Shown here: one piece after another, positions 14,918 through 62,970 of the stretch
Numbering within the stretch: the stretch's first letter is position 1
Layout of the letters: every line of letters starts with the position of its first letter
NCBI GenBank assembly: GCA_963772565.1
Contig: CAVYXU010000015.1
Span: 4,306-68,305 of the forward strand
Length of the DNA stretch: 64,000 nucleotides
Reading direction: 5' to 3'
From: an uncultured Chloroflexia bacterium
Lineage (GTDB): Bacteria > Chloroflexota > Limnocylindria > Limnocylindrales > CSP1-4
Position numbers and translations under genes: made by a program
The notes under the pieces: generated by a model
Told to the model about the DNA's origin: nothing
The model's input: the letters and a program-made list of their open reading frames with translations, nothing else
Databases searched by the model: none

Positions 14918-16615
14918 ATGCGCCGCTGGAGCGAGATCGCAGAACAGGTGGCCGGGACGACGAAGACGTCCCAGAAGACATCGATCCTGGCCGGCTACCT
15001 GACGGGCCTGCAGCCGGACGAGCTGCCGATCGCGGCCCGATTCCTGACCGGCCGTCCGTTCGCCGAAGCCGACCAGCGGACGATCGGGATCGGCTGGGCC
15101 GGACTCTCCTCTGCCGTCCTTCGGGTCGCGGGTGCCGATGCCGACGCCCTTCGCCGCGCCTACGATCGATCGTCCGACGTATCGACGGCCGTGGCCGAGG
15201 TGCTCGCGGGGGCCGGGCATGCCCCGGTCGCGGCCGGGGAGCCGACGCTGGCCGACGTCATCGCGGCGTTCGAGGCGATCGAGGCGGCTACTGGGCCGGC
15301 GGCCAAGGCGGCGATCCTCGAGGCGCTCCTCGCCCGCTCTTCGCCGGTCACCGTCGCCGGGATCGTCAAGGTGCTCACGGGCGAGCTCCGGATCGGGCTT
15401 CGCGAGGGCCTGCTCGAGGCGGCGATCGCAAAGGCCTTCGACCGCCCGCTCGACGCGGTCAAGAGGGCCGGAATGCTCACCGGTGACGTCGGACGGACGG
15501 CCGTGCTGGCGCGCGAGGACCGCCTCGAGGAAGCAACGCTGGCCCTGTTCCACCCGCTCAAGTTCATGCTTGCCTCGCCGGCCGAGGATGCCGACGAGAT
15601 CATGGGCCGGCTGGGGCCCACGGTGTGGGTCGAGGACAAGTACGACGGGATCCGCGCCCAGCTCCATCGCGCGGGCGACCAGGCCCGCGTCTACTCGCGC
15701 GACCTGCACGACATCAGCGACCAGTTCCCGGAGGTGATCGAGGGCGCGGTCGGGCTGTCGTGGTCCGGGATCCTCGACGGCGAGATCCTGGCCTGGAAGG
15801 ATGGCACCGTCCTGCCCTTCCTCCAGCTCCAGGCGCGCCTCGGCCGCAAGCGCCCCTCGGCCCGGATCCGCGACGAGGTTCCGGTGATCTACGTCGCGTG
15901 GGATGCGCTCGGGCTCGATGACGGCGACGCCGGCGTCGTCCGGCCGCTGCTCGACCTTCCGCTGCGGGAACGGCGGCGCCGGCTCGAGACCCTGGATCTG
16001 CCCGCGGCGGCTGAGGGCGGGCGCTTCGCGCTCAGCCATCTCCTCGAGGTGGCGTCCGCCGATGGGCTGGAGGCGGCCTTTGCGCAGGCGCGGGCGCGAC
16101 GCAACGAGGGGCTGATGGTCAAGGACCCGGCGAGCGGCTACACACCCGGTCGCCGCGGGCTCGGCTGGCTCAAGATGAAGAAGGCACTCGCGACGCTTGA
16201 CTGCGTCGTGGTGGGGGTCGAGGTGGGCCACGGCAAGCGCCACGGGGTGCTGTCGGACTACACCTTCGCGGTTCGCGACGATGCCACCGGGAGCCTGGTG
16301 ACGATCGGCAAGGCATACAGCGGCCTGACCGATGCCGAGATCGCCGAGATGACCCGCTGGTTCGAGGCGCATACCGTCAGCTCCCACGGCCGGTACCGTG
16401 TCGTGGAGCCCGCCGTCGTGATCGAGGTCGCGTTCGACGTGATCATGCGCTCGGCCCGCCATCGGTCCGGCTTCGCCCTTCGGTTTCCCCGGATCGCTCG
16501 CCTCCGTCCCGACAAGCCTCCGGCGGAGATCGACACCCTGGCGACGGTCACGCGCCTCTACGAGGGCCTGCAGCTCGGAGCAGAGCACCTGGTGACGGCG
16601 AGCGCCAGGCGATAG
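14918..16615 (+). CDS. ATP-dependent DNA ligase (LigB/LigC type).
   Basis: The adenylation motif I KYDGIRAQ and motifs III-V are present, with a C-terminal OB fold. The length is 565 aa. Confidence 0.9.
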   Translation: MRRWSEIAEQVAGTTKTSQKTSILAGYLTGLQPDELPIAARFLTGRPFAEADQRTIGIGWAGLSSAVLRVAGADADALRRAYDRSSDVSTAVAEVLAGAGHAPVAAGEPTLADVIAAFEAIEAATGPAAKAAILEALLARSSPVTVAGIVKVLTGELRIGLREGLLEAAIAKAFDRPLDAVKRAGMLTGDVGRTAVLAREDRLEEATLALFHPLKFMLASPAEDADEIMGRLGPTVWVEDKYDGIRAQLHRAGDQARVYSRDLHDISDQFPEVIEGAVGLSWSGILDGEILAWKDGTVLPFLQLQARLGRKRPSARIRDEVPVIYVAWDALGLDDGDAGVVRPLLDLPLRERRRRLETLDLPAAAEGGRFALSHLLEVASADGLEAAFAQARARRNEGLMVKDPASGYTPGRRGLGWLKMKKALATLDCVVVGVEVGHGKRHGVLSDYTFAVRDDATGSLVTIGKAYSGLTDAEIAEMTRWFEAHTVSSHGRYRVVEPAVVIEVAFDVIMRSARHRSGFALRFPRIARLRPDKPPAEIDTLATVTRLYEGLQLGAEHLVTASARR

Positions 16616-17352: not shown

Positions 17353-18246
17353 CTAGCGCTCCACGGGCAGGTCCAGCCGGTCGCCCCACTCCGCCCAGCC
17401 GCCGTCGTAGACGGCGACGTCGTCGTGGCCGAGCAGGGTCATCACGTACGCGAGCTTGGCGGCCGCGACCCCTGAGCCGTCGTAGCACACAAGCCGGCGA
17501 CCACGCGTGATGTTCGCCTTGAGCAACAGCGACCGGATGTCCGTTGCGTCGCGTAGCTGTTGCGTACCCGGCTGGTGCAGGGCAGCCACGGGCAGGTTGA
17601 CGGCGCCGGGAATGTGGCCGAGGCGGCGCACGTTGCCCTCGAAGCCGCGGTATTCGGCGGGGCCACGCGCATCGATCAGCAGGACATCCGGGGTCCCCAG
17701 CAGCGAGCGCACGTCCGCCGTCGTCAGGCGGAGCCGAGCCTGCGCACGCGGGGTGAACGCCGCCGCCCGGACGTCCGAGGCGCTGGACGTGACCGTGTGG
17801 CCGGCGTCGCGCCAGGCGGGGAACCCGCCCTCCAGGACCCGCGCGGACTCGAACCCGTAGGCTCGGAGGCTCCACCACACGCGAGCCGCGTAGTAGGACA
17901 GCGTGTCGTCGTACAGGACGATGGATGTCCCATTGCCCACCCCGGCGTTCGACATCGCGCCGGCAACGCGATCGGGGGAGGCCAGCAGGAGCGCGTCGCC
18001 GCCCTCGCCGACAGCCGCAAGCGCCGACTTCCAGTCAACGTACACGGCGCCGGGGACGTGCCCCGCCGCATGGAGGGCCTCGCCGGTGCCGTCCGGTCGC
18101 CACCGGACATCGAGGACGCGGAGATCGGACCGCGCGAGGTTTTCCGCCAGCCAGTCTGGGGTCGCGACGAGCTCGGGACGGGCGTATCCGGCCAAGGCGG
18201 CCTCCGAACAGCGTGACGGGGTTTGGGGTGACGCGGGTGCCGGCAA
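17353..18246 (-). CDS. Thiosulfate/3-mercaptopyruvate sulfurtransferase (tandem rhodanese domains).
   Basis: Two rhodanese modules are present, with the catalytic Cys loop CYDGSGVAAAKLAY. The start could be internal. Confidence 0.85.
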   Translation of the reverse strand: MPAPASPQTPSRCSEAALAGYARPELVATPDWLAENLARSDLRVLDVRWRPDGTGEALHAAGHVPGAVYVDWKSALAAVGEGGDALLLASPDRVAGAMSNAGVGNGTSIVLYDDTLSYYAARVWWSLRAYGFESARVLEGGFPAWRDAGHTVTSSASDVRAAAFTPRAQARLRLTTADVRSLLGTPDVLLIDARGPAEYRGFEGNVRRLGHIPGAVNLPVAALHQPGTQQLRDATDIRSLLLKANITRGRRLVCYDGSGVAAAKLAYVMTLLGHDDVAVYDGGWAEWGDRLDLPVER

Positions 18247-18283
18247 CCGGCACCGATATCATACGGGCGTGGTTTCCCCGTTC

Positions 18284-19522
18284 ATGCCGGAGGCCGAGAA
18301 GGTCGCGGCCATCCGCGACCTGCTGCCCGCAACACGCGCCGGGATCTACCTCAACGCGGGTACCGCCGGCCCCATGTCCGCCGAGGCCCAGCGCGCCATG
18401 GACGATCAGGGGGCGCGCGACCTTGCCGTCGGGCGCGCCCACCTCGATGCCTGGCCGGAGACGCTCGAACGGATGGCCGAGGCGCGAGCAGCGGTCGCAG
18501 CGGTGCTCGTGGCCGATCCCGACGACATCGCGCTGACCCATTCCACGACCGACGGCATGAACCTCGCGGTGGGCGCGCTGGCCTGGGCTCCGGGGGATCG
18601 CGTCGTCACGACCCGCCACGAGCACCCGGGCGGGCTGGGGCCGCTGCTCGCCCTGCGCGACCGGTCGGGGGTCGAGGTCGAGCAGGTCGACATCGGTGAC
18701 GGGGGCGACGATCCGCGAACCCTGGCGGCGTTCTCCGCGGCGCTCGGGCGTCCCGCACGCGCGGTCGTGTTCAGCCACGTCCTGTGGACCACGGGGGCGT
18801 TGCTGCCCGCGGCGCCGCTGGTGGCGATGGCGCGCTCGGCGGGCGCGGTGAGCATCGTCGACGGAGCGCAGGCCGCGGGGGCGATACGGGTCCAGCTCGA
18901 TGAGCTCGGGGCGGACGCGTATGCCGTGCCCGCCCAGAAATGGCTCCTTGGACCAGAGGGGATGGGAGCCCTGTGGATCCGGCGCGGGTTGGCCGATGCC
19001 ATCGTGCCGCCCGCGGCAGGGTCCCAGTCCTACGCCTCCTTCGACGCCGCTACCGGCCTAACCCTGCATCCGGGCGCTCGCCGATTCGAGGCAACGGCGT
19101 TTCACCGCCCGTCCCTGGTCGGGTTCGCGCGGGCCTGTGGCTGGCTGTCGATGTCGGTAGGGCTGCCGTGGGCGACCGAGCGGGCCGGCCGTCTCGCTGC
19201 GGCTGCGGCGGACAGGCTGGGCTCGATCCCGGGCGTCGACCTCGTCACGCCGCCCGGGCGGATGAGCACGCTGGTCTCGTTCCGGATTCGGGGCTGGGCC
19301 GCAGCCGAGGCAGCGAACGAGCTGGGCGCCCGGGTGTTCGCGATCATCCGCGACGTTCCGGCCATCGACGCCATCAGGGTGTCGGTGGGGTTCTGGAACA
19401 CCGAGCCGGAGCTCGACCGCTTCGCCGAGGCCGTGGAGCTGCTCGCGCGCCACGGTCCGGACACGATCCCGCCGCGCCGCACCCTGACCATCCTGGGCAG
19501 TGATGACCGACCCATCTCCTGA
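18284..19522 (+). CDS. Class-V aminotransferase (cysteine desulfurase / SufS-CsdA-like).
   Basis: The PLP fold type I region (LTHSTTDGMNLAV, VDGAQAAG, and the KW of QKWLLGPEGMGALW) is present. The ATG is at 18284 (MPEAEKV). The N-terminal 127 aa of the ORF are rejected because they overlap the rhodanese gene. Confidence 0.85.
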   Translation: MPEAEKVAAIRDLLPATRAGIYLNAGTAGPMSAEAQRAMDDQGARDLAVGRAHLDAWPETLERMAEARAAVAAVLVADPDDIALTHSTTDGMNLAVGALAWAPGDRVVTTRHEHPGGLGPLLALRDRSGVEVEQVDIGDGGDDPRTLAAFSAALGRPARAVVFSHVLWTTGALLPAAPLVAMARSAGAVSIVDGAQAAGAIRVQLDELGADAYAVPAQKWLLGPEGMGALWIRRGLADAIVPPAAGSQSYASFDAATGLTLHPGARRFEATAFHRPSLVGFARACGWLSMSVGLPWATERAGRLAAAAADRLGSIPGVDLVTPPGRMSTLVSFRIRGWAAAEAANELGARVFAIIRDVPAIDAIRVSVGFWNTEPELDRFAEAVELLARHGPDTIPPRRTLTILGSDDRPIS

Positions 19523-19922
19523 GGGGCGGTCAACCGTGCCAGCGCGACGGCGCGGCTGGCTCGAGATCCGCTGGCGCCAATTCCGGCGCGCGCCGCGCCC
19601 CGTGGTCCGCGCGGTGGCCAGCAGCCTGGCCGTCGCGGTCGTGACGGGGGTCGCCTATCTCGCCTATGACATCGCGCTCGATCGTGGCGCGGTGCTCCCC
19701 GGCGGCGACCTGCGCCTGCTGGTGCTGACCCTCTACGTGGCGGTGGTGCTGGTGGCGGGCGCGGTGGTGACCTGGCTCGTCGTCCCACTGCCGGCGGGGA
19801 GCGGCACGCGGCGGGCGACGCGGACACCGTGGAGTGCCGCGCTGGGCCTGTTCGCCGCCGTCCCGATCGCGTATCTCGTCCTCGTCGTCCTCCATGAGCT
19901 GGTCAAGCCCCTGCTGGTGTGA
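19503..19922 (+). CDS. Small membrane protein, hypothetical.
   Basis: There are three hydrophobic helices. It overlaps the aminotransferase 3' end by about 20 nt. Confidence 0.45.
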   Translation: MTDPSPEGRSTVPARRRGWLEIRWRQFRRAPRPVVRAVASSLAVAVVTGVAYLAYDIALDRGAVLPGGDLRLLVLTLYVAVVLVAGAVVTWLVVPLPAGSGTRRATRTPWSAALGLFAAVPIAYLVLVVLHELVKPLLV

Positions 19923-19973
19923 CTTCCGGCCGGGTCAGGCGTTGCCACGGCCCGCTATCATCGGTCGCGGTCG

Positions 19974-20324
19974 ATGCACGACCGACTGAGACGAGTGAGG
20001 ATCCGGGTGGCCAACGACGAGCACGTACACGTCGCCCTGCCAAAGCTCTACGGAGCTCCTGCCTATGCGCGCCCACCCGTGGTGCCCGTGCAGCAGGCGG
20101 ACCGACCGCTCGATCCAGATGCCCTGCCGCTCGAGGCGGTGCAGACCGACGAGGAGCGAGAGATCGCGCGTCGCATCTCCGCGCACGGGTACGAGCATGC
20201 CGCGGCCGCCTCGGAGCTGGTGACTGCCGGCAACGGAAAATCGGCACATCTGCGCGGGCGGCAGTTCCGGCTGCGGGCGATCACGGGCCTGTTCCGCGAC
20301 AATGAGGGCGGCACGACCGACTGA
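19974..20324 (+). CDS. Hypothetical protein.
   Basis: An ORF with acceptable composition lies immediately upstream of the tRNA. No motif is recognised. Confidence 0.3.
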   Translation: MHDRLRRVRIRVANDEHVHVALPKLYGAPAYARPPVVPVQQADRPLDPDALPLEAVQTDEEREIARRISAHGYEHAAAASELVTAGNGKSAHLRGRQFRLRAITGLFRDNEGGTTD

Positions 20325-20350
20325 GGCGCGTCGCGTCACAGGTCCATCGT

Positions 20351-20427
20351 GGGGGAGTAGCTCAATCGGTTAGAGCAGCGGGCTTATATCCCGCCGGTTC
20401 CAGGTTCGAGTCCTGGCTCCCCTACCA
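20351..20427 (+). tRNA. tRNA with anticodon UAU (formally tRNA-Ile reading AUA).
   Basis: A cloverleaf was folded by hand: a 7-bp acceptor stem (G1-U72 wobble plus 6 Watson-Crick pairs), D-stem GCTC/GAGC, anticodon stem GCGGG/CCCGC with loop CTTATAT (U33, anticodon TAT at 20385-20387, A37), T-stem CCAGG/CCTGG with loop TTCGAGT, discriminator A, and an encoded CCA. Confidence 0.8.
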
Positions 20428-20505
20428 CACTGCGAGTGGGTGGCATCGCGTGCGCCGGACCGCCGGTCCGGACCACCGTGCCCGATCCCGGACCACCGGG
20501 TCCGG

Positions 20506-21288
20506 TCAGCGTCGGGCGCGTCTGCCCCGGCTCCCGGTCGCCTCGGCTCGCAGCATCTCCACCAGTCGCTCCCGACGATCCGGCGTCAGTCCGCGTTGCG
20601 CCGGGAGCGCCTCGAGCCAGCCGGCGAGCGCGTCAGGTCGAACAACCGCACACGCGGCGGTGCGCTCGACGCGCGGGTCGTCGGTCACGACGACCGCATG
20701 GACCTTGACGAGGAAGTCACGGTCGTCGGACGAGAGCCACCCCCGGACGCGTTCCGCGTCCCGAGCCGTGCCGTCCAGCGGCGGCTCGATCGGGATCCAG
20801 CGGCCCTGCGCGCCGCGGAGCTCCCAGCGGCCCCCGACGATCCGACTCACGCTCGGCGGCGGGACTTCGCCCAGGACGACCACCCCGAACGGTCCCAGGA
20901 CGAGCTCGCGGACCCGGCGGCCCCCCGGAAGCGCAAGGTCGGTCACGGCCACGTGGTCGTCGCCGAGCTTGGTGGCCAGTCGTGGCGCCAGCGTTCGTGG
21001 CCGGGCCGCAGCGTGCTCGACAATGGTGAAGAAGCGAGCGACCCCTAGGATCAGGAAGCCCGCCGGGACGACGATGGCGAAGCCCCACGCGAGGATGCCC
21101 CCGGCCATCTGCATGGCCGTCGCGCGGCCGGTGGGCGTGAACGAGCTGATCATCGGCGTCGCCACGAACATCCAGGCGAGCAACCCGCCCACCAGGATCA
21201 TCATGATGGCGGACACGGCCGCGCGGAAGACGGGGACGCGGCCCGCGCGGGACGCCGGCGCCGCGGCAGCGATCACTTGCATGGCCAT
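20506..21288 (-). CDS. Membrane protein with a NERD-like soluble domain (hypothetical).
   Basis: Two or three N-terminal TM helices are followed by HVAVTDLALPGGRRVRELVLGPFGVVVLGEVPPP, which resembles the nuclease-related NERD fold pattern. Confidence 0.55.
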   Translation of the reverse strand: MAMQVIAAAAPASRAGRVPVFRAAVSAIMMILVGGLLAWMFVATPMISSFTPTGRATAMQMAGGILAWGFAIVVPAGFLILGVARFFTIVEHAAARPRTLAPRLATKLGDDHVAVTDLALPGGRRVRELVLGPFGVVVLGEVPPPSVSRIVGGRWELRGAQGRWIPIEPPLDGTARDAERVRGWLSSDDRDFLVKVHAVVVTDDPRVERTAACAVVRPDALAGWLEALPAQRGLTPDRRERLVEMLRAEATGSRGRRARR

Positions 21289-21584
21289 ATCCTCGCGAGC
21301 CCTTCCTCTCCTGGGTATGCCCCGTTCGGGCTACAACGGGACGGGCCAGGGTCCTCACGACCGTACCGGAGCGCACCGGAGCGAACCGCATCGGTGCCCG
21401 CGTGCACCGCCAATTCGCGGCTCGGGCTGGAACCGACGGCGCGATGCACCCCGGACGACGCGCCGTCTGTACCCCCGCGACCCGGTTGAGGCCGGGACCC
21501 CCGTACCATTGCGCGCCGTCCACGTCGCTCCGATCCTGCAGGTAAGCCGCACATCTGCCGGGGGGCAGGGAGCCTGGAGCCGCG

Positions 21585-22130
21585 TTGGTCCACCTCACGA
21601 TACGAGCACTGCGCATGGTCGTGCGCGGCCTCGGCCAGTCGCCGGCCCGGGCGCTGATCGCGGCCGCCCTCCTGGTTGCGCTGGCCGTCCTTCCGGCTGC
21701 GGCGGGGGGTCCGTCCGGCCTCACGACGCCATCGGTCTCCCCGACGTCCGGCACGACGGCGACGGCAATCTCGTTCGCCGTCACCTATCACAGTGCGAAG
21801 GACGACGCGCCTGACTACGTGCGCGTCGTCGTCGGCTCGAAGACCTACCCGCTGGAGCGAACGGCCGGGTTGGAGACCTGGAAGAACGGCGTCCGGTACA
21901 CAACGACGACCAGGCTGCCCGCGGGTACGTGGACCGTCCGGTTCGAAGCCAGGTCTGGGTCGTTCGAGCCGAGCGTCGCCGGGGATACGGTGACAATCAC
22001 GCCCGCGCCGACGCCCAAACCCACACCTGCGCCAACGCCCAGGCCCACACCAACGCCCAAACCCACACCTGCGCCAACGCCCAGGCCCACGCCCGCGCCG
22101 ACGCCCAAGCCGACCCCGGCGCCCACCTAA
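21585..22130 (+). CDS. Secreted protein with a C-terminal Pro/Thr-rich tandem repeat (possibly the N-terminal part of a frameshifted longer gene).
   Basis: The signal peptide is [41 protein letters not shown]. An approximately 120-aa domain follows, then ([14 protein letters not shown])n ending at TAA 22128-22130. Confidence 0.6.
21993..22127 (+). repeat. Tandem 42-nt coding repeat ([14 protein letters not shown]), 2 near-perfect copies at 22011-22094 plus degenerate flanks.
   Basis: The unit acgcccaaacccacacctgcgccaacgcccaggcccacacca is repeated directly. Confidence 0.8.
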
Positions 22131-23149
22131 GGCCCGCATCGACGCCGGCACCGACGTCGTCGCCGGTCGGGACCGCTTCGCCGAGCGTCCCGCATACGGC
22201 CGTTCTCGATGGCGATCCGGGAGCCGGCCCCGGAACCCAGACGTCCGAGCCGACCCCGAACCTTGACTCGTCGCCCTCGTCGCCCTCGCCGAGTCCCGAT
22301 CCGGTCACCGCGGGGATCCTCGGCGGAACGGGCTCCGGCGGAACGGGGTCCGGTGGCCCCGGCGGTTCCGATAGCTCCGGTTCCGGCGGCCCGGGTCCCG
22401 GCGGGGCCGGCGACGGGAGCGGGAGCCTGCCCGGCGGGCTCAGTGGATCATCGAGCCTGACGGCCACCGTGCTTCGAACCCTGCCCACGGTGGTGGTGAC
22501 GACGGGCGGCGTCACCATGCTCATGGCATTCATGATGTTCGGGAAGCGCCGACGCGACGGCGAGCCCAACGGCTCCGACGACGAGCTCGCCGAGGCCGCG
22601 CGGCGCGGGTACGGCATGGGCGGCTACTCCGGGCTGGTGCCCGAGGCTGCCGCTGCCCCGGCCGCGCTCCAGGCCGTGATCGTATCCGCGCCCGCGGGCG
22701 AGACCGACCAGCACCTGCCGCGCTGGCGCCGGCCCTCGCTGATGGAGGCCCGCAAGAACGATCCGCTGCGCAGTGCCTCCACCACCGTCCGGCTCACCTT
22801 TGACGGGGAAGCCGGGGAGGCCGTCAGCGGCCTTGAACGACGGCTCATCCGGTATCGCCTCGTCAGCCTGCTCGACATGCCCGACGAGGTCCGTGGCGTC
22901 GAGATCGACGTCCTCGACGAGGGTGACGAGGTCGTGCTGCTCGAGAAGCGTGGGACCTACTGGCGGGTGCTGTGCCCCGACGGCCGCGAAGGATGGCTCC
23001 ACAAGATGACGCTGGGCGATGTCGTCATCGGCAGCTCCGTCTCCGACGCGGCGAGCTGGACCTCGGGCGACGAGGATGTCGATGCGGGCGGCTTCGAGGA
23101 CGTCCTGCGCGCCTACGACGAGCACCGGCGGCAGTTCGGAGACGCCTGA
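22131..23149 (+). CDS. Continuation reading frame: Gly/Ser/Pro-rich linker, TM anchor, then a cytoplasmic domain with an SH3-like segment.
   Basis: The frame is open from the TAA of the previous ORF and reads ...LPTVVVTTGGVTMLMAFMMFGKRRRD (TM plus positive stop-transfer), then RGVEIDVLDEGDEVVLLEKRGTYWRVLCPDGREGWLHKM. There is no convincing independent start, though the GTG around 22463 is an alternative. Confidence 0.45.
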
Positions 23150-23151
23150 CC

Positions 23152-24102
23152 TCAGCGATCGGGCTTCGGGGTCGCCTTTGCGGCGCGGGTATTGGCCGGT
23201 GCCTTGCGCAGCACCAGGATGTGCTGGTGCGCGATGTTGGGAACGAATGAGCGCGGGTAGCCGTACGGCCGCAGCCGCGTCCCCGCCTGGTACCAGGCGA
23301 TGTCGCCCTTGGGAACCAGGCCCGCGGCGTCCGCCCGAGCTGCGAGATCGGCGGCCGTGAACAGGTACCGGCCGCCCTGGTACGCGTCGCGCACGATCAG
23401 CACCGCATAGCGGCCCGGGCGAAGGATCCGATGGACCTCGCCGAGCACCTCGCCCATCGCGTCCAGAAACGACGGGTAGTCGGGCAGGTTCGCCAGGTCC
23501 GCGTCAAGCGACGACACCATCGCGTAGTCGGTGCGCCGGTTCGCGTGCGCCTCCGCCAGCCTCCCACCCGCCATCGTCATCGGCAGCTGGACGTTGTACG
23601 GCGGGTCCGTGACCACGAAATCGATCGAGTCCGCCCCGATCGTGGGCAGGATCGCCCTGGCGTCGCCCACGCGCAGCTCGAGACCGGAGGGATCGAACGA
23701 GCGCACGCCACCTGGGTCGCTGGCACCCAGGTCCGCGAGCCGTGGCCCCAGGCCATCCCGCTCGGCGGCGAGCGACGCGACGGTTTCGGCGTAGACCGCT
23801 GCCCAGCGCGGGTCGAGCTCGATGCCCAGCGCTCGCCGGGGTCTGCGGGCGATTGCCGCACCCAGCAGCGTGCCGCCCACGCCGGCGAACGGGTCGAGCA
23901 CGAGCTCGTCGCTGCGGGTGAAGAACTCGATCAGGCGGGCCATGAGGCGGGGCGGCTTGTTGGCGCCGTGGACCTTCCGTCGATCGTGCCCGAGCTCCGA
24001 CGGGTAGGCGGTGGTCCAGACGGACTTCGTGAAGTACAGCCACTCCTCGCCGGACAGCTCGTTGAGCTCGTTGGCGGGGTGGGGCGGCCGACGGTCCTGC
24101 AC
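23152..24102 (-). CDS. DNA amino-methyltransferase (N6-adenine or N4-cytosine) with motif I before DPPY.
   Basis: The order is HGANKPPRLMARLIEFFT, DELVLDPFAGVGGT, GIELDP, and then VVTDPPYN about 95 aa later. No restriction endonuclease is seen nearby. Confidence 0.8.
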   Translation of the reverse strand: MQDRRPPHPANELNELSGEEWLYFTKSVWTTAYPSELGHDRRKVHGANKPPRLMARLIEFFTRSDELVLDPFAGVGGTLLGAAIARRPRRALGIELDPRWAAVYAETVASLAAERDGLGPRLADLGASDPGGVRSFDPSGLELRVGDARAILPTIGADSIDFVVTDPPYNVQLPMTMAGGRLAEAHANRRTDYAMVSSLDADLANLPDYPSFLDAMGEVLGEVHRILRPGRYAVLIVRDAYQGGRYLFTAADLAARADAAGLVPKGDIAWYQAGTRLRPYGYPRSFVPNIAHQHILVLRKAPANTRAAKATPKPDR

Positions 24103-24188
24103 CCGCGAAGCGTACCGGCCACCGCGATCGCCGTGGCCGGGAGCGGGCGGGACTGTCTCGAGGCTCAGCGCGGCGTCCCTACAATGCG

Positions 24189-27100
24189 TTGATGCCGGGC
24201 AGAGTCGTCAGCCGCCAGTTCATCGGGCGTGAGCCGGAGCTCGCGCAGATCGACGCGGCCATCGCGGCGGGTGCAAAGGGCGGGGCAGCAACCGTCGTGG
24301 TCGCCTCGAGCGCGGGCATGGGCGCCTCGCGGTTCATCGACGAGGCGCTGACACGCGCCGCGTCGGGAGCCATGCCCCCGCTCGTCATGCGCGGCCGTGC
24401 CGAAGGCCCGGTCGATTCTCCGTGGGCGGCCGTGCTCGAAGCACTGGGACCGGTGCTGTCCGTTCGCCCCCGGGAGGAGCAGCTGGCCCTCCTCCGGCGC
24501 GATCCCCGCTCAATGCTGCTCGCGCTGCCTGGTATGGCCGCGCTTGCCGCCGAGCTCCCCGCTCCTCCGGTCAGCGCGCTGGCTGACCCGGAGCGCCGGC
24601 AGCCCCGGGCTCTCGCGGCACTCCTGCGCTGGCTCGGGCGGCTTGCCCTCGAGAAACCGCTGGTCATCGTGCTCGAGGACCTGCACATCGCCGATGCCGC
24701 CACCCGGGCGTTCGCCACCTTCGTCGCGCGGATTGCCCGGGATGAGCGGCTCACGCTCATCGTCACGTACCAGCCGGACCGCATGACCCGGGAGCATCCG
24801 CTGCGCGACAACCTCGCGATCATCGAGGGCGGCCTCCGCCCGCCGGTCAACATCGAGCTCCGTCCTCTTGCGCGACGGGAGATCGCACGAATGATCGAGG
24901 GCATCGAGGGGGAGCGGCCATCGGCCTCGATCGTGGTTCTCGTCGCCGAGCGCTCGGGCGGCTCGCCGATGGTCGTCGAAGAGCTGGTCGCTGCGCGTCG
25001 GGAGATCCGCAACGTCACCCTCACCGGGACGCTTTCCGACCTCGTCGCGGCGCGACTCCAGGGGCGATCACCCGAGTGCCGGCGCGTTCTGCGGCTCATG
25101 GCGCCCGCGGAGCGCGCGATGAATCGCGGGCAGCTGGCCCTCGCCGCCGCGACGTTCGAGGCCGGGCCGCAGACCCGCCTCCCTCCGCGCTCGACATCCC
25201 TGCCACGGCGCGGAACCGCGTTGATGGATGCCGACCTGTTGGCCGGCCTGGACGAGGCGCTCGAGCACGGGTTCGTGCGCGCCGATGCCGAGGGCCGGAT
25301 GCGGATCCGTCACGAGATGGTCGCCCGCGCCGTGGTCAGCGATCTGCTGCCGACCCAGCTTCCCAGGTATCGAGCCGCGGTGGCCAGGGCGTTCGACGAC
25401 GTGCCCATCGTCGCGGCCATGCACTGGCGTGCGGCACACCGGCTGGTGGAGGCGCGCGACGCCGCCATCCGTGCCGGCCGGCTGGCGATGACCGTCGACG
25501 CGCCCCAGGATGCGCTGGCCGCGTTCGAGATCGCGCTCGAGCTCCCGCCGCCCGATGACCCCGGGGTCGCCGATGAGATGAACGTGGGTCTCCAGGACGA
25601 GGCGGCTGAGGCCGCGCTCGCCGCCCTGCGCCCGACCCGCGCGGTTGCCTACGCGGAAGCGGCGATCGGGGCACTGCGCGAGCGGAGCGATCGGGTCCGG
25701 CACGGGGTTCTCGAAGCCCGACTGGGTCGCTACCGGCTGGCCGCGGGCGATACCGCGGGTGCCACGACGGCGCTCCGGCGGGCCGCGGAGGTCGTGCCGG
25801 ATGCGCCATCGATCGAGCGCGCCCGGATCCTCGCGCTCCTTGCCCAGGAGCGGATGATCGCGGGCGCGTTCCGCGACGCCGAGCGCGCCGCAACCGGGGC
25901 GCTCGTGATCACCGAAGGTCTCGGACCCTCGGCCGAGCCCGAGGCGATCCACGCCATGACGACGCTCGCGGTCGTCAAGGGCTGGAGCGACGATCCGGAG
26001 TCGGCGCTGCCGATCCTCGAGCAGGCGGTCGAGCGCTCCCGCGCCCTCGGCCTGGTCGAGGAATGGTGGCGGGCCGGGGCGAACATGGCCGTCGTCCTGG
26101 AGCTGCTCGGGCGCCAGCAGGAGGCGATCGACGTTGCCTTCCGCGACATGGAGGAGGCGCGCGCCAACGACCTCGACGCGATCTACGGCAACCTGCTCGG
26201 TGGCAACGTCGCCGGGCTCCTGGTCGACGTCGGGCGCTGGCAGGAGGCGCGCGAGCTCAGCCTCCGTGCGCTCGACTGGAGTCCCGCGGGCGTGCCGTTC
26301 GTCAACGCGCTGATCAACCTCGTGCTCGTCGAGATCGAGTCGGAGGCCGGCGAAGAAGCCGGCCGGCTGCTTGGCCGGATCCTGGTGGAGCTCGAGACGG
26401 GCGGCGATCTCCAGTTTGCCGTCCCTGCCTACCAGGCGACCGCCTCGTACGCGATGTGGAGCGGCGACCTGGCCGACGCCCGACGCGCGATCGAGCGCGG
26501 CTGGGCACGCCTGCGCGGGTCCGAGGACTGGGTTCTGGTCGCGCGCATGGCGGCGACGGCGCTCGAGGTCGAGTCCGCGATCGTCACCGCCGCGCTCGAG
26601 AAGCGCCGGATCGCGGACGTGGCCGCCTCGCGGGAGCGCGCGGGCCGGATGCTGGCCGAGGCGGAGGCAGCGGTCGCGCGGGCCGGCCTGGAGTCACCGG
26701 CGACCGCCGGTCGCGAGCCCGGTACCAGCCTGGCAACGGCGCGCGCCTTCTACGAACGGCTTCACGGTCGGGATGATCCGTCGCACTGGGCAAGCCTGGC
26801 GGAGCGATGGCACGAGCTCGGCGATCCGTACCGCGAGGCGCGCGCCCTGTGGCGCCAGGCGGAGGCGAACCTGAACCTGGCCATCGCCGGCAGGGCGGCG
26901 GGGACCCGGGTCAGGACGGACGCCCGCCTCGCGCGTGCCGAGGCACGGGATCCGCTGATCCGGGCGGTCGAGCTTGCGATGGGCCTCCACGCGCGGCCGC
27001 TGCTGCGGGCGCTCCGGGACCTGGGGGGCCGCGCCCTGATCACGCTGCCGCCTGAGGTCGATGCGCTGCTCGAGGAGCCCGTGCCGGCGCCCGCAGAGCC

Positions 27101-27413
27101 GCGGGCGTCGGTTTCGCCGGGCCCTGTCGTCCAGGCATCGGGACCCCCGCCGGTGCCAGTCCCCGCCGGCTTGCGACCCGCCACCGGCGGGGACACGTTC
27201 GGGCTCTCGCGCCGGGAGCTCGAGGTGCTCGCGCTGATCGCGAAGGGTCGGACGAACCGCGAGATCGGCGACCGCCTGTTCATCAGCCAGAAGACCGTGG
27301 GCGTCCACGTCGGAAACATCCTGGCCAAGCTCGGCGTGTCGGGCCGCGTCGAGGCCGCGGCGGTCGCGATCCGGCTGGGTCTCGAGGAGGAGGCGGCGGC
27401 GCGGCGCCGTTGA
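24189..27413 (+). CDS. Large ATP-dependent LuxR-family regulator (LAL/MalT-like: AAA+ NTPase, TPR, C-terminal LuxR HTH).
   Basis: The N-terminal P-loop region is VVVASSAGMGASRF and the Walker B is LVIVLEDLHIAD. There is a long helical repeat region and a C-terminal LSRRELEVLALIAKGRTNREIGDRLFISQKTVGVHVGNILAKLGV. Confidence 0.85.
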   Translation: MMPGRVVSRQFIGREPELAQIDAAIAAGAKGGAATVVVASSAGMGASRFIDEALTRAASGAMPPLVMRGRAEGPVDSPWAAVLEALGPVLSVRPREEQLALLRRDPRSMLLALPGMAALAAELPAPPVSALADPERRQPRALAALLRWLGRLALEKPLVIVLEDLHIADAATRAFATFVARIARDERLTLIVTYQPDRMTREHPLRDNLAIIEGGLRPPVNIELRPLARREIARMIEGIEGERPSASIVVLVAERSGGSPMVVEELVAARREIRNVTLTGTLSDLVAARLQGRSPECRRVLRLMAPAERAMNRGQLALAAATFEAGPQTRLPPRSTSLPRRGTALMDADLLAGLDEALEHGFVRADAEGRMRIRHEMVARAVVSDLLPTQLPRYRAAVARAFDDVPIVAAMHWRAAHRLVEARDAAIRAGRLAMTVDAPQDALAAFEIALELPPPDDPGVADEMNVGLQDEAAEAALAALRPTRAVAYAEAAIGALRERSDRVRHGVLEARLGRYRLAAGDTAGATTALRRAAEVVPDAPSIERARILALLAQERMIAGAFRDAERAATGALVITEGLGPSAEPEAIHAMTTLAVVKGWSDDPESALPILEQAVERSRALGLVEEWWRAGANMAVVLELLGRQQEAIDVAFRDMEEARANDLDAIYGNLLGGNVAGLLVDVGRWQEARELSLRALDWSPAGVPFVNALINLVLVEIESEAGEEAGRLLGRILVELETGGDLQFAVPAYQATASYAMWSGDLADARRAIERGWARLRGSEDWVLVARMAATALEVESAIVTAALEKRRIADVAASRERAGRMLAEAEAAVARAGLESPATAGREPGTSLATARAFYERLHGRDDPSHWASLAERWHELGDPYREARALWRQAEANLNLAIAGRAAGTRVRTDARLARAEARDPLIRAVELAMGLHARPLLRALRDLGGRALITLPPEVDALLEEPVPAPAEPRASVSPGPVVQASGPPPVPVPAGLRPATGGDTFGLSRRELEVLALIAKGRTNREIGDRLFISQKTVGVHVGNILAKLGVSGRVEAAAVAIRLGLEEEAAARRR

Positions 27414-27462
27414 GCGGGCCACGATCGCGCCGCGGCGCCGTTGAGCGGGCCACGACCGCGCC
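27401..27462 (+). repeat. Direct tandem duplication of 31 nt (1 mismatch) spanning the LuxR stop codon.
   Basis: gcggcgccgttgagcgggccacgatcgcgcc is followed by gcggcgccgttgagcgggccacgaccgcgcc. Confidence 0.85.
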
Positions 27463-27575
27463 GCGATGCCGCAGATCGGGGCGCGACTGCGGCGCGGAGG
27501 AACCGCCGGCGGACGCATCTCTCGCGGGCATTGGGTAGGATCGGGCCGTTCCGCGCCGCCCCGATCGAGGTTTAC

Positions 27576-28061
27576 ATGCGCCGTCTTCTCCTTGGAACCG
27601 CGCTCGTCGCGCTCACCCTTGCCGCCGCCGCCTGTGCGACCGCAAGCCCCGGCTGGACCTATGCCGCGCCGACGGAGGCACCGCCGTCGCAGCCGGCCGC
27701 CTCGAGCGACGCATCGACCGCCCCTTCAGAGGCGCCGGCCTCGGCCGCCCCAACGGAAGCGGCCTCCGCGGGCACTGGCGGCGCGACCGTCCAGATCTCC
27801 GCGTTCAACATCGCGTTCGAGCAGAGCGACGTCAGCGCACCGGCCGGCGCGCCGTTCGTGATCCACTTCGACAACAAGGACGCGAGCGTGCCGCACGACA
27901 TCGCGATCAAGGACGCCAGCGGTACGCAGGTGTTCAAGGGCGACGTCGTCACCGGGCCCGCCGAGACCGACTACAACGTGCCCGCCCTGCCGGCCGGCAC
28001 CTACCAGTTCATGTGCACGATCCATCCGAACATGACCGGCACGCTCACGGTGGGCGGCTGA
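27576..28061 (+). CDS. Cupredoxin (blue-copper, plastocyanin/pseudoazurin-like) lipoprotein.
   Basis: The start is MRRLLLGTALVALTLAAAAC, a lipobox. The T1 copper ligands are in canonical spacing: H in VPHD, and C, H, M in YQFMCTIHPNMTG. Confidence 0.8.
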   Translation: MRRLLLGTALVALTLAAAACATASPGWTYAAPTEAPPSQPAASSDASTAPSEAPASAAPTEAASAGTGGATVQISAFNIAFEQSDVSAPAGAPFVIHFDNKDASVPHDIAIKDASGTQVFKGDVVTGPAETDYNVPALPAGTYQFMCTIHPNMTGTLTVGG

Positions 28062-28071
28062 GGTCCCCGGT

Positions 28072-28824
28072 GTGACGCCGCGGGTCGACGAGGTCTGCTA
28101 CCGCGACGCCTATCTCCGTACGCTCGAGTCGCGGGTCCTCGAGGTTGCCGGTGCCGACGGACCGCCCATGGTCGTGCTGGAGGCGACGGCGTTCTATCCG
28201 GGTGGCGGCGGCCAGCCATCGGACCGAGGCACCATCCTGCGCGCCGGCGATGGCCGATCCTGGGTCGTCCGGACGGCCAGGCGAGTGGGCGGCGAGATCG
28301 TGCACGAGCTGGAGCCGCCCGAGGATGGCGAGCTGCCACACGCGGGCGATCGGGTCACCGTCGACGTCGAGTGGGCACGCCGGTACGCGCTGATGCGGAC
28401 GCACACGGCACTGCATGCGCTGTGTGGTGTCGTCTGGCGCGACTACGGGGCGCTGGTGACCGGCGGCAACATGGAACCGGGCTCGGGCCGGATGGACTTC
28501 GAGTTCGAGCGGATGTCGGGCGACCTGGTCGAGGACATCGAGGCGAAGGTCAACGCGGAGCTTGTGGCTGCCCACGATGTCCGCGTCAACGTGCTGCCGC
28601 GCGACCAGGCGTTCGCGATCCCCGACCTGATCCGGACGAAGGTGAACCTTCTGCCCCCGGGGATCGAGCAGATTCGGACGATCGAGATCGTCGGGCTTGA
28701 CCTGCAGGCCGACGGGGGCACGCACGTCGCGAACACCCGCGAGGTGGGCGGGATCAGGGTCACGGGCTACGAGTCCAAGGGCCGGATCAACAAGCGGGTC
28801 CGGGTCGCGCTGGTCGACGCATGA
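28072..28824 (+). CDS. AlaX-like Ala-tRNA editing protein (threonyl/alanyl-tRNA synthetase second additional domain).
   Basis: The zinc motif HTALHALCGVV (HxxxH...C) and a later GGTH are present. Confidence 0.8.
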   Translation: MTPRVDEVCYRDAYLRTLESRVLEVAGADGPPMVVLEATAFYPGGGGQPSDRGTILRAGDGRSWVVRTARRVGGEIVHELEPPEDGELPHAGDRVTVDVEWARRYALMRTHTALHALCGVVWRDYGALVTGGNMEPGSGRMDFEFERMSGDLVEDIEAKVNAELVAAHDVRVNVLPRDQAFAIPDLIRTKVNLLPPGIEQIRTIEIVGLDLQADGGTHVANTREVGGIRVTGYESKGRINKRVRVALVDA

Positions 28825-28908
28825 GGATCAACCTGGCGGGTGACTCAATCCGTTGCCCGGCGACGATGATTGACAGCTCGGGGGCCGCGTCCGGTAGTTG
28901 ACCGGTCA

Positions 28909-30282
28909 CTACCCGACGTCGACCTTCTGGGCCGTCATCAGGCCGTTGTTGGAGAAGATGAACCCCCGCACGTGGTTGAAATACGCGGTGCTTGCGACGG
29001 ACGGGCGGTTGCCGGTGATCGAGACGTTGGAGGCCGGGCGCGACGAGCTGTAGCCGTCAACGCGGACCCGGCCCTTGTCCATGATGTTGTTGCGGATGAC
29101 GATGTTCGTGGGCTGGACGTCCACCTTGGCCGGCGTGAGCACGACCGCATAGCCCTCGCCGGAGGGCGTATGCCCGTAGTCGAAGTTACGCAGGACACAG
29201 CCCTCGACGACGATGTTCTTGAGCACATCGCTCGAGCGGTTGGGCTCCCCGTCGATCGCGTGGAGCGCGGCGTGGTTGATCGACACCCCGCTGATCGTCG
29301 CGCCGTTGACTGAGATCAGGCCGATCCCGTTGCGGCCGATGACGTCCATCTTGACGTTTGCGATCAGCACCCCGGTTGTCGGTCCGTCGACACCCGAGGC
29401 GTTGCGCGGGCGCAGGTCGACGCCGTCGCCCCATGTGCCATGGATCGTGGCGTTGCGGAGGGTGAAGCCGGACGTCGTCTCCACCGAGAAGGCCGCCTGG
29501 TCCTGCCGATCGTCGCTACCGAACACCCGGTTCTGCACGTTGGCCAGCGTGGCCGGTCCGGTGATGTTGAGGCCGTCGACGACGATGTTCTTGCCCTGCA
29601 CGATCCTGAGGTGGGAGGACTGGCTGGTCGAGGCCGTGTAGCGCTTGAACGTCGCGCCGTGGCCGTAGATGGTGCCGGTCCAGCCGACGAGCTCGATCCG
29701 GCCGTCAACGCGGTAGACGGCGCCCGATGCGAAGCACACCCGCTTGCCGGCGTTCGCCCGGAGGAAGCTGGCGATCGCGCTGGACTGATCGCTCGTCTTG
29801 GAGGGTGCCTGGGCGAACGTCGCGTCGCACCCGGTCGCGGGCTTGGGCGTCGGTGCGGGCGTGAGCCGGGGGGTCGGCTTCGGGGTGGGCGTTGGCCTGC
29901 CCGTGGGCGTCGGCTTCGTCGTCGGCGTCCCGATGGCCCTGGGGGTGGGCGTCGCTGCGTCGGCCGGCGCCGTCGTCGGGTCGCCGGCCGGGATCGCCAC
30001 CGTCGAGGTGGGTGTCGGATCTGCGATCGCCGGCAGGGTCGGCGCGGGCACAATGGTCGCGAACGGCAGCGCCGAGACCGCGGTGCTCGGTGGGGTTGGC
30101 GTCTGCCCGGCGCGATCCGGCATGGATGCGTCGCACCCAGCGACGAGCGGGACGCCGAGGAGGAGGCCCGCGAGGAGCAGCGCGCCCACAGAGAGCCGGC
30201 CATCGGGCCGGCGAGGGGACTTCGGGGGCGGCGTGAGGGTCTGGTCGGTCCGCCGGAATTCGTCTACGGCCATGCGAAACAC
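28909..30282 (-). CDS. Lipoprotein with a right-handed parallel beta-helix (pectate-lyase-like) domain and a PT-rich linker.
   Basis: The signal/lipobox is LLLGVPLVAGC. The linker is [30 protein letters not shown]. Repetitive ..NIV..G..I.N.. beta-helix rungs follow. Confidence 0.7.
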   Translation of the reverse strand: MFRMAVDEFRRTDQTLTPPPKSPRRPDGRLSVGALLLAGLLLGVPLVAGCDASMPDRAGQTPTPPSTAVSALPFATIVPAPTLPAIADPTPTSTVAIPAGDPTTAPADAATPTPRAIGTPTTKPTPTGRPTPTPKPTPRLTPAPTPKPATGCDATFAQAPSKTSDQSSAIASFLRANAGKRVCFASGAVYRVDGRIELVGWTGTIYGHGATFKRYTASTSQSSHLRIVQGKNIVVDGLNITGPATLANVQNRVFGSDDRQDQAAFSVETTSGFTLRNATIHGTWGDGVDLRPRNASGVDGPTTGVLIANVKMDVIGRNGIGLISVNGATISGVSINHAALHAIDGEPNRSSDVLKNIVVEGCVLRNFDYGHTPSGEGYAVVLTPAKVDVQPTNIVIRNNIMDKGRVRVDGYSSSRPASNVSITGNRPSVASTAYFNHVRGFIFSNNGLMTAQKVDVG

Positions 30283-30818
30283 TGCTCCTTCGGCAGCCCG
30301 GTTGACGCCCAGCGTCGCGGGCTGTGGGCTTCGCCTCCCGGCAGGCGCAGCCTGAGGATCGTCGGGCGTGGATCACGGACACTGGTGGCGGCACAGCCGC
30401 AGCCAAGGTCATGACCACGCACGAATATGGGGCATGCGGGGGGCACGAAGGCCCATGCTCGGCCCCGACCGGCCGCATCCGGATCCCGCTGGTAAACATC
30501 GGCGCCACAGAGCGCCGGATACGGGTTTCCGAGCCACGGGGGCGTTGCTGCGGGGAGTCTACCCGCAGTCTCTGGACGGCGCTGTCCGAATGACAGCCGA
30601 GCGCGCAGTGGTGCGAGCCGCCATCCTTGATCCCACGACTGCCAGTCATGCCTGACGGGGTCACTTCATGGTTGTGGTGCGCTGGCGCACCACAACCATC
30701 GCGGGACGTACGCCTCACGCCCTTGACCGTATTGACCCTCCGCATTCGAGACAGTACTTTCGTCCCGCTGCACCTAGTCCGAACAGACTACGCCGGGGTT
30801 CAAGCTGGGAGGTCTTCG

Positions 30819-31118
30819 TTGTCAACGCATCGACGCCTCATTGCACCAACGATCGTGCTCGGGGCACTGCTCGTCGGGGCGCCGACCGTCGTCGCGCGCG
30901 AGCCGTTCCCCCATGAGTTCCACCACAACATGGGGTATTGCGCGCCGTACCTTGCCCAGCTCCGGTTGCCGGACGGGTCGCCAGTTCGCCCGTGGATCAA
31001 CCACCTCATCCACGATCTGACGACACAGTTCGGGTCGTTCGAAGGGCAGAAGAACGTCGGCGACCTGTACAGCGATCGGGCGCGCAGCGAGACGGACCAG
31101 AACTGCGTTGCACGCTGA
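30819..31118 (+). CDS. Small secreted His/Cys-containing protein (hypothetical).
   Basis: GGGAGG at 30807-30812 is followed after 6 nt by a TTG start. There is a signal-like segment LIAPTIVLGALLVGAPTVVA, then PHEFHHNMGYC. The ATG-initiated extension back to 30627 would put 64 aa before the signal peptide, so it is rejected. Confidence 0.4.
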   Translation: MSTHRRLIAPTIVLGALLVGAPTVVAREPFPHEFHHNMGYCAPYLAQLRLPDGSPVRPWINHLIHDLTTQFGSFEGQKNVGDLYSDRARSETDQNCVAR

Positions 31119-31158
31119 CGATCTGATCCTGGTAGGGAGTGAAAGGAGATCCCGGTAC

Positions 31159-31611
31159 ATGAAGCGTGTCCTGCTCTCGATGGCCGCCGCGGGCCTGCTG
31201 GTCTTCGCGTCGGTTGGAGCCGTCGCCGCGACGGGCGGCCACGGAGGGAATCCGCACCGGACCCTTGCGACGCCGAGCACGGCGTGCCGGATCATGGTCC
31301 AGTACCACGTCGGTGGCTACACCTCGTTTGGCGACTGCATGGGCAGCCTCCACGGTGACATGGCGGCCTACCGCTTCCCGGACGACGCGGACCCCACGAA
31401 ATTGCTGACGCTCTCCGAGCGCTGCACGCAGCTGGAGCAGGGTGTCTACGACGAGATGGTGGGCGGGCTGCTCCAGATCAGCTACCCGTTCTACTTCGAA
31501 GAGTTCCCCGGCTGGCCGTTCCCCACGCTCACGGGGCAGAACCATCAGCAGTGCATGACGACCCTGTTCACTTACCACAATCTTGCGAGCCTTCTGTTCG
31601 GCCCCGAGTAG
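31159..31611 (+). CDS. Small secreted His/Cys-containing protein (hypothetical).
   Basis: AAAGGAG lies 9 nt upstream of the ATG at 31159. The signal peptide is MKRVLLSMAAAGLLVFASVGAVAA. There are four Cys and GGHGGNPH. Confidence 0.55.
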   Translation: MKRVLLSMAAAGLLVFASVGAVAATGGHGGNPHRTLATPSTACRIMVQYHVGGYTSFGDCMGSLHGDMAAYRFPDDADPTKLLTLSERCTQLEQGVYDEMVGGLLQISYPFYFEEFPGWPFPTLTGQNHQQCMTTLFTYHNLASLLFGPE

Positions 31612-31702
31612 GACAGACCTGCGCGCAACGCGCGATCCACGGCCGGCACGGGCAGGTCCCGAGCCGGCCGTTCCATGTCCAGCGTCGCCTTCGCCGAGCC
31701 CC

Positions 31703-32447
31703 TCAGGCGTTACCCAGGCGCTCGACCACCGGGCGCATCGCCTCGAGCGTCTCGAGCGTCGGGGGCCAGGGGACGCATTCGACCTGCGTCACCCCGACCT
31801 CGGTGAAGGCGTGCAATGCATCGGCGATCCGGTCGGCCGAACCGCGAACCGGCACGCCGAAGCCGGCAGCCTCGGAACCGGTCGCGTCCGTCGGCTCGAC
31901 GGCACCGATCATCAGCGGGACCGCCCCGGACCGTGGTCCACGGGGCCGCGACTCGACGTCCTTCGCGTGGTGATACGGCCCGGCGTGGTCGGCCCGGCCG
32001 GTCCGGAGCAGCGGCATGATGATCTCGAGCGCGTCCTCGAACGCCCGACGACATGGTCGAGCGGAAGGCCGTATGCCTCGGCTTCCGAGTCGCCACTGCC
32101 GGCGCCCAGGCCGAACACGAAACGCCCACCCGAGATCTCGTCGAGGGTCTCGACCGCCCGAACCGTGACACCGGGGTTGCGGTGGTTCGCGGACAGCACC
32201 CACGTTCCGACCTCGATCCGCTCGGTTGCGTCCGCCAGGGCCCCGGCGATCGCGACGCACTCCCACCAGCCGCGTGGCCCGGGCCACGCATCGACGCGCC
32301 ACAGGAGCTCGTCCGGGACGCAGACAGTGTCGAAGCCTATGTCCTCGGCCAGCCTCCCCATGGCGCGCAGCTCGTCCCATCGGTGCCGCGCCCGGTCTCG
32401 ATGTCTTCGTACAGGGGGAGCACGACGCCGAACTTGAGGTCACGCAT
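31703..32447 (-). pseudogene. Luciferase-like (F420-dependent-type) oxidoreductase disrupted by two frameshifts.
   Basis: The N-terminus MRDLKFGVVLPLYEDIETG is in one frame. The middle (RWDELRAMGRLAEDIGFDTV...WPGPRGWWECVAIAGALADATERIEVGTWVLSANHRNPGV...GRFVFGLGAGSGDSEAEAYGLP) is in a second frame. The C-terminus (FEDALEIIMPLLRTGRADHAGPYHHA...) is in a third. The shifts are near 32395 and 32040. Confidence 0.7.
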
Positions 32448-32586
32448 GGGTGTCGGCCTCCGATGAGCGAGGGATCACGCGGGCGCGGTCATCCGTCGCG
32501 GTCGAATGGTCTCATGCGCTTCGCCCGGTACCCTCAGGCTGACATCCGACCGCCCGATCCGGCGCCATCGAGGGAGACGACCAGCC

Positions 32587-62913: not shown

Positions 62914-62970
62914 CGCAGGCGAGTGTATCGGGTCGGTCGAGGACCGGTTGTCCTGCCCTATGCTCCCGGC

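Follow-up and report, generated by a model that had tools for sequence, protein, structure and literature searches.

Introduction

Reading the codon AUA without misreading AUG is a classic problem of decoding, and TilS, which is essential, is the answer to it in nearly all bacteria. In the canonical system the tRNA-Ile2 gene encodes the anticodon CAU and TilS converts position 34 to lysidine; the known exceptions to TilS are limited to a small number of reduced parasites together with Bifidobacterium and Neorickettsia. A genomically encoded tRNA-Ile(UAU) is uncommon in bacteria, as a sequence-only reading of the DNA described here had supposed: 19 species were found in tRNADB-CE in 2014 (PMC4013482), and a dedicated study described three clades with nine tilS-less species between them, a small number of species that have both systems and, from the environment, 371 unique tDNA-Ile(TAT) sequences (PMC3575796).

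The tRNA-Ile2(UAU) of Mycoplasma mobile is a single-copy, lineage-inherited gene with a genomic UAU anticodon and A37, dedicated to AUA. Its host is a tiny AT-rich parasite for which the loss of tilS, an unmodified U34, Arg865 in IleRS and a discriminating ribosome have been shown experimentally (PMC3575796). An E. coli-type IleRS charges the UAU anticodon poorly, with 1.1% of kcat/Km, and the remedy in M. mobile is an Arg in the Zn-binding domain of IleRS (PMC3575796). Bifidobacterium and Neorickettsia, in which the UAU tRNA is clade-wide and not sporadic, are without tilS and have a horizontally acquired eukaryote-type IleRS as their remedy (PMC3575796); in eukaryotic IleRS a conserved Arg contacts the 4-carbonyl of U34 (PMC11685878). 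Lactobacillus casei, L. plantarum, Cyanothece PCC 7424 and Ferrimonas balearica are ordinary free-living bacteria in which the UAU tRNA stands beside tilS (PMC3575796).

Here we describe a tRNA-Ile(UAU) of the class Candidatus Limnocylindria, which is encoded in a 64 kb stretch of DNA (the window, by which we mean the whole stretch that was analysed). It shares with the M. mobile tRNA a genomic UAU, A37, a single copy, inheritance within the lineage and, as far as can be read from the gene, dedication to AUA, but its host, known here from sequence, is free-living, with ∼71% GC, a genome of ∼3.6 Mb and AUA at ∼0.4 per 1,000 codons. As in Bifidobacterium (also high-GC and also of the Terrabacteria) and Neorickettsia, the tRNA is found throughout a clade, although this clade is a whole class in a different phylum. 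The cases of coexistence with tilS resemble it in that the host is an ordinary free-living bacterium; these are scattered species or narrow groups, whereas the Limnocylindria gene is class-wide and at a fixed locus. It would do the same job as the canonical tRNA-Ile2(CAU) with lysidine, namely reading AUA as Ile, and differs in that position 34 is encoded as U and not as C. Phage tRNA-Ile(UAU) has the same anticodon and a similar D-arm, but the phage copies lie clustered with other tRNAs on contigs of low GC (median 0.40), and among the viral matches listed the best (L092) is only 84% identical. The D-arm may also resemble that of E. coli ileX.

We found nothing specific in the literature on tRNA-Ile(UAU), tilS or lysidine in Limnocylindria or other Chloroflexota. 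A class-wide tRNA-Ile(UAU) in a free-living, high-GC, non-reduced lineage, with an odd invariant G1.U72 and U38, is an addition to the known cases and lengthens the list of such tRNAs. This abundant, uncultured soil and freshwater class also supplies a defined set of genomes for questions of TilS loss, IleRS adaptation and wobble-U chemistry.

The tRNA gene and its conservation

The gene and its anticodon are placed as follows.

20351..20427, + strand: tRNA-Ile(UAU), 77 nt, with encoded CCA, G1.U72, A37 and discriminator A73 (ARAGORN, Rfam, covariation, identical copies)
20385..20387, + strand: anticodon TAT (U34 A35 U36), in the loop CUUAUAU at 20383-20389; ARAGORN puts the anticodon at gene position 35

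ARAGORN reports one tRNA in the 64 kb window, a tRNA-Ile with anticodon tat at 20351-20427(+), and the same gene is the sole Rfam family match within the window (RF00005, full length over 20351-20424, 71.8 bits against a gathering score of 29, E = 1e-13). The encoded CCA end at 20425-20427 was read directly from the sequence. The coordinates, the cloverleaf and the TAT anticodon of the sequence-only reading were all right, the scanner assigning tRNA-Ile(tat) at the same coordinates. A pattern made of the D-arm and the anticodon matches once in the window and never in 100 shuffles, and identical copies of the tRNA sequence are present at 14 other loci. Thermodynamic folding was tried as a test of the cloverleaf and rejected: the minimum free energy (MFE) is -31.5 kcal/mol (z = -1.87) and no cloverleaf comes out of it, as is usual for MFE folds of unmodified tRNA sequences. 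Because thermodynamic folding alone gives no cloverleaf, a covariance model and covariation were used for the fold; ARAGORN, Rfam and covariation all give a canonical cloverleaf with U34-A35-U36.

The 241 copies collected from genomes and metagenomes collapse to 35 variants, which differ mainly in the D-loop, at positions 26 and 44 and at one T-loop base. Across 13 distinct variants the cloverleaf is 99.6% paired and seven pairs are altered on both sides, a result equalled by none of 500 shuffles, and the signal is lost once the partners of the pairs are offset by one to three columns. The compensatory changes fall in the acceptor, anticodon and T stems and are carried by the Limnocylindrus variant (L206), L157 and L366. 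At four syntenic loci the tRNA is unchanged except at positions 26 and 44, and both flanks are without similarity. The tRNA is under purifying selection: its body is near-invariant, its flanks are fully diverged and its stems covary.

Positions 26 and 44 (window 20377 and 20395) shift jointly, as A26/C44, U26/C44 or G26/U44, which suggests a constrained tertiary pair. The G1.U72 wobble (window 20351 and 20422) is invariant in all 13 distinct variants, the divergent body of L366 included; an elongator tRNA would not usually have it, and it may act as an identity or processing element.

A C34 (CAU) version of the family body gave no match in 241 million metagenome records, against at least 120 matches for the U34 version in the same collection, which served as the positive control. 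U34 is thus fixed in the family. That the gene arose recently from a CAU gene of the same body, by mutation of C34 to U34, was considered and rejected, there being no C34 allele in the metagenome collection.

One locus is rearranged (L366:12141-19993). Its tRNA-Ile(UAU) is inverted (15139-15216, minus strand, 78 nt, loop CUUAUAC) and keeps the acceptor stem and the UAU anticodon, while the D, anticodon and T stems differ. Its neighbours are a 729-aa gene that encodes Phage_holin_4_2 and phosphodiesterase domains, and a transposase-family gene (DUF772). This variant has no match among viral contigs, on which ground a phage origin for it was rejected, and it is absent from all of the other loci fetched. 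Judging from L366, the anticodon, more than a particular body, appears to be what the lineage retains.

Distribution in Candidatus Limnocylindria

Genomes were scanned at one per species with a pattern that held the anticodon arm exact; this replaced a generic tRNA-Ile(UAU) pattern, which was unspecific and drew low-GC phage tRNA clusters. At least 120 genomes, each representing a species, have the lineage tRNA, as do at least 120 metagenome contigs. Of the genome matches listed, 115 of 120 are labelled Chloroflexota/Limnocylindria (the record labels being 'Candidatus Limnocylindria', 'Limnocylindrales', 'Limnocylindrus' and 'uncultured Chloroflexia' MAGs), and the other five have the same synteny. 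ARAGORN finds the tRNA in 121 of 123 genome loci; most of the loci counted here were selected for having it, since the pattern fixed the anticodon arm. The unbiased sample consists of ten long contigs for which the flanking aminotransferase protein, and not the tRNA, served as the query, at 70-86% protein identity. All ten have tRNA-Ile(UAU) at the locus, nine of them in the canonical position and one (L366) rearranged. The nearest database homologue of the window aminotransferase is 92% identical.

The tRNA is a lineage-normal, near-invariant, single-copy core gene at a fixed chromosomal position; comparison of the locus in relatives thus goes against the sequence-only reading, to which the gene had looked unexpected. 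That reading had also implied an actinomycete-like genome, whereas the lineage is Chloroflexota, class Ca. Limnocylindria. Genomes of the class are ∼3.6 Mb in size with ∼71% GC, one complete chromosome among them being 3.62 Mb (OY970218.1, 3,624,741 bp, of MAG MFD04716.bin.1.117), with the tRNA locus at about 1.63 Mb.

Eight loci carry odd labels. L169, L184, L192, L202 and L203 bear among them the labels Sulfomarinibacteraceae, Patescibacteria, Verrucomicrobiia, Eisenbacteria and Methylomirabilota, and L132, L153 and L201 are labelled 'Anaerolineaceae', yet each has the Limnocylindria tRNA. Because all eight have the same flanking genes, they are probably mislabelled or misbinned Limnocylindria contigs.

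Gene neighbourhood

Genes in the window were called by third-position GC and annotated with Pfam and NCBIfam. The order around the tRNA starts with an ATP-dependent DNA ligase and a DUF6812 protein, and continues as listed.

17353..18258, - strand: two-domain rhodanese (sulfurtransferase-like; PF00581, 1.6e-34), divergent from the aminotransferase and kept in relatives
18284..19522, + strand: class-V aminotransferase (cysteine desulfurase/lyase-like), 412 aa (PF00266; homologues 412 aa)
19536..19922, + strand: small membrane protein with hydrophobic segments, 128 aa, conserved, no assigned function (tblastn matches in 108 of 123 loci)
19995..20324, + strand: small soluble protein (from its translation), 109 aa, conserved, no assigned function (tblastn matches in 108 of 123 loci)
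20351..20427, + strand: the tRNA
20506..21288, - strand: 260-aa membrane protein convergent with the tRNA (called NERD-like in the sequence-only reading), directly downstream of it in 91 of 104 loci
21929-23149, + strand: repeat/SH3-like protein, 406 aa, 5' end uncertain (conserved downstream block)
23152-24102, - strand: N6/N4 DNA methyltransferase (Pfam/NCBIfam; conserved downstream block)
24189-27413, + strand: LuxR-family large ATP-binding (LAL/STAND-type) regulator (Pfam/NCBIfam; conserved downstream block)
27531-28061, + strand: cupredoxin (Pfam/NCBIfam; conserved downstream block)
28072-28824, + strand: AlaX-M editing protein (Pfam/NCBIfam; conserved downstream block)

The aminotransferase starts at the ATG at 18284 and opens a same-strand run that the tRNA closes; it is directly upstream of the tRNA in 94 of the 97 loci with enough flank. 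The stop codon of the 109-aa ORF lies 26 nt upstream of the tRNA in the window, and the corresponding gap is 24-40 nt in eight of the nine canonical relatives and 72 nt in L364. The 260-aa membrane protein has no Pfam, NCBIfam or PADLOC match. By tblastn across loci, the downstream block (21929..28824) has the same order in L121-L123, L367, L369 and others, at 54-92% protein identity. In two relatives (L202:900-3042 and L203:3430-5600) the tRNA and the convergent 260-aa gene are separated by an extra ORF of ∼300 aa, so the site just 3' of the tRNA tolerates small insertions.

The divergent rhodanese and cysteine-desulfurase-like aminotransferase (17353-19522) are both of sulfur-mobilising types and are arranged in this way throughout the class. 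The pair has no MnmA-like thiolase gene close by, and a sulfur-relay link between it and thiolation of U34 was set aside as speculation.

The window also holds several repeats. At its 3' end the LAL regulator gene has a tandem 31-nt duplication (27396-27457), and within the 406-aa repeat protein there is a six-copy, Pro/Thr/Ala-codon-rich repeat (21998-22129, spaced 12-24 nt start to start). A 21-nt sequence (GCACGACCGACTGAG...) at 19976-19996, just before the start of the second small ORF, recurs at 20311-20331, at the stop codon of that ORF and 20 nt upstream of the tRNA; the two copies may be a chance match.

Use of AUA

AUA accounts for seven of the 17,114 codons in 46 confident window genes, which is 0.41 per 1,000 and 1.0% of the Ile codons, bearing out the view of the sequence-only reading that it is very rare in this genome. 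In 605 genes of relatives it accounts for 69 of 196,337 codons (0.35 per 1,000) and only UUA is rarer. At this rate a genome of 3.6 Mb would hold about 400 AUA codons, which would call for a decoder. Four of the seven window AUA codons are in a single gene (61435-63882, minus strand), an 815-aa PLP-dependent decarboxylase-like gene that has the lowest third-position GC (0.84) among the large genes.

The AUA codons stand at Ile positions. One is the codon for Ile in the invariant MG-I-GP motif of thiolase, and the position of another, at 18884 in the aminotransferase, is Ile in 109 of 121 sequences. At 88 AUA sites the orthologues have Ile in 49%, Val in 16%, Leu in 12% and Met in 6%, a profile like that of AUC and AUU and unlike that of AUG (Met 47%). 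The host thus uses AUA as an Ile codon, and the suggestion of the sequence-only reading that the tRNA might be a suppressor finds no support. The AUA in the aminotransferase is unique to this genome, AUC being at the site in 69 of 81 cases among relatives, which rules out a conserved regulatory AUA in this upstream gene. AUA is an ordinary, sporadically arising Ile codon with no sign of reassignment or of a conserved regulatory AUA.

Proposed role and its alternatives

We conclude that the tRNA is very probably a vertically inherited, functional reader of the rare Ile codon AUA in Ca. Limnocylindria, as judged from the gene, its conservation and the sites at which AUA is used. The scheme that we propose starts from the order of the locus, which is class-V aminotransferase, two small ORFs, tRNA and convergent membrane-protein gene. 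The tRNA is probably co-transcribed with the aminotransferase and small-ORF genes and would then be excised by RNase P and 3' processing; co-transcription is suggested because the gap after the upstream stop is 24-40 nt and there is no consensus promoter, no sigma-70-like promoter or intrinsic terminator having been found for the tRNA. U34, in whatever state of modification, would pair with the A in AUA, A37 would be expected to bear t6A by analogy with other ANN-reading tRNAs, IleRS would charge the tRNA with Ile and the misreading of AUG would have to be avoided.

Among the IleRS elements of the window tRNA, A35, U36, A37, A73 and U12-A23 are present, position 38 is U and the pairs 4-69 and 29-41 are G-C. 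A38, C4-G69 and C29-G41 of the E. coli set are thus missing. An adapted IleRS would be expected in Limnocylindria because an E. coli-type IleRS charges the UAU anticodon poorly. Neither tilS nor ileS is in the 64 kb window according to Pfam and NCBIfam, and no PP-loop ORF was seen in ∼950 kb of fetched Limnocylindria loci, a chance look that is uninformative on tilS.

Whether this AUA reader is the only one is a separate matter. By analogy with M. mobile, Bifidobacterium and Neorickettsia, the tRNA could well be the sole AUA decoder, the class having replaced TilS and its lysidine-modified tRNA-Ile2(CAU); we regard this as a close call, at or just under an even chance. TilS would be unable to act on the Limnocylindria tRNA itself because its position 34 is U, with no C34 allele among the 241 million metagenome records. 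Alternatively, TilS and a lysidine-modified tRNA-Ile2(CAU) are kept and tRNA-Ile(UAU) is a redundant second reader of AUA, which would compete with the sole-decoder claim only and leave the role in AUA reading as it stands. This is a substantial possibility, if more clearly short of an even chance: TilS is near-universal, being present in 98.2% of surveyed bacteria (PMC6063277), and coexistence of tilS with tRNA-Ile(TAT) is documented (PMC3575796). A redundant gene would, however, be expected to decay somewhere, yet the tRNA is present at all ten of the unbiased loci, the family is near-invariant and UAU is kept even in the rearranged locus with a different body (L366); this suggests that the gene is not redundant. 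Universal retention thus argues mildly for a non-redundant role.

The sole-decoder reading has a fuller form, in which the whole class has lost TilS and tRNA-Ile2(CAU), and G1.U72, C32/U38, the fixed U34 and the place behind the cysteine-desulfurase-like/rhodanese pair are parts of a lineage solution to AUA/AUG discrimination, with an adapted IleRS and possibly a new modification of U34. We put this forward tentatively, as slightly short of an even chance. If it is true, Limnocylindria would surpass in size every other bacterial clade that decodes AUA without TilS and would be the first of them to be free-living and not reduced.

An improbable alternative is that the tRNA is regulatory in the manner of bldA (Streptomyces tRNA-Leu UAA), gating the few genes that contain AUA, its own abundance being determined by the operon. 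The rarity of AUA, exceeded only by that of UUA, would fit such a role, as would a single-copy tRNA that is apparently without a consensus promoter of its own and the presence of an AUA in the gene just upstream. That upstream AUA is confined to this genome, however, AUA sites have the look of synonymous drift that arises sporadically at ordinary Ile positions (those in core enzymes such as thiolase included) and no target regulon is evident. Still less probable, to the point of being very doubtful, is that the gene is not an Ile tRNA in practice and is instead a pseudogene, is charged with a different amino acid, or reads AUG or a reassigned codon. The absence of some E. coli IleRS elements (the tRNA having U38, G4-C69 and G29-C41) and the unusual invariant G1.U72 could be taken this way, but conservation of the structure is strong and includes compensatory changes, Rfam matches the gene over its full length and substitutions at the AUA sites follow the pattern of Ile and not Met.

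Evidence against horizontal transfer

The sequence-only reading had proposed that the tRNA may mark a horizontally acquired region and had described the downstream 7 kb as island-like. The ground for such a view is that tRNA genes are common integration sites, that the downstream genes include a lone DNA methyltransferase and a STAND-type regulator and that phages commonly carry tRNA-Ile(UAU): a generic pattern matched viral contigs of which 117 of the 120 listed (L001-L120) have this tRNA, with 532 tRNAs in all and a median GC of 0.40. Against it, the same locus is found in ten of ten protein-seeded relatives and in at least 120 species genomes, and gene order on both sides of the tRNA is held across relatives whose proteins are 54-92% identical. 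Pfam and NCBIfam find no family of integrases, recombinases or phage proteins among the ∼50 proteins of the 64 kb window. A search for an att repeat found no second copy of the 25-nt 3' end of the tRNA in the window with up to three mismatches allowed, and there is no relevant direct repeat in 18000-34000. GC is 0.71-0.74 on either side of the tRNA, in a window of ∼71% GC without a compositional break, and no defence system is found in the window beyond the lone methyltransferase. The lineage-specific tRNA pattern has no match in viral contigs, for which reason a phage origin of the lineage tRNA was rejected.

The downstream 7 kb is core synteny because its genes follow in the same order in relatives, and the locus as a whole is conserved core synteny and not an island. 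It is thus hardly credible that the tRNA is the marker of a genomic island or prophage, or came in with one, and that the downstream 7 kb is its cargo. Annotators have no reason to treat the Limnocylindria tRNA-Ile(UAU) as an island marker.

The nearest viral tRNA among the matches listed, which is 84% identical to that of the window, is the tRNA-Ile(UAU) at L092:1129-1205 (IMGVR_UViG_3300009183_008240, GC 0.50). Its acceptor and T arms are like those of the Limnocylindrus variant (L206) and it too has G1.U72; the contig may come from a phage of the Limnocylindria lineage or be a host fragment.
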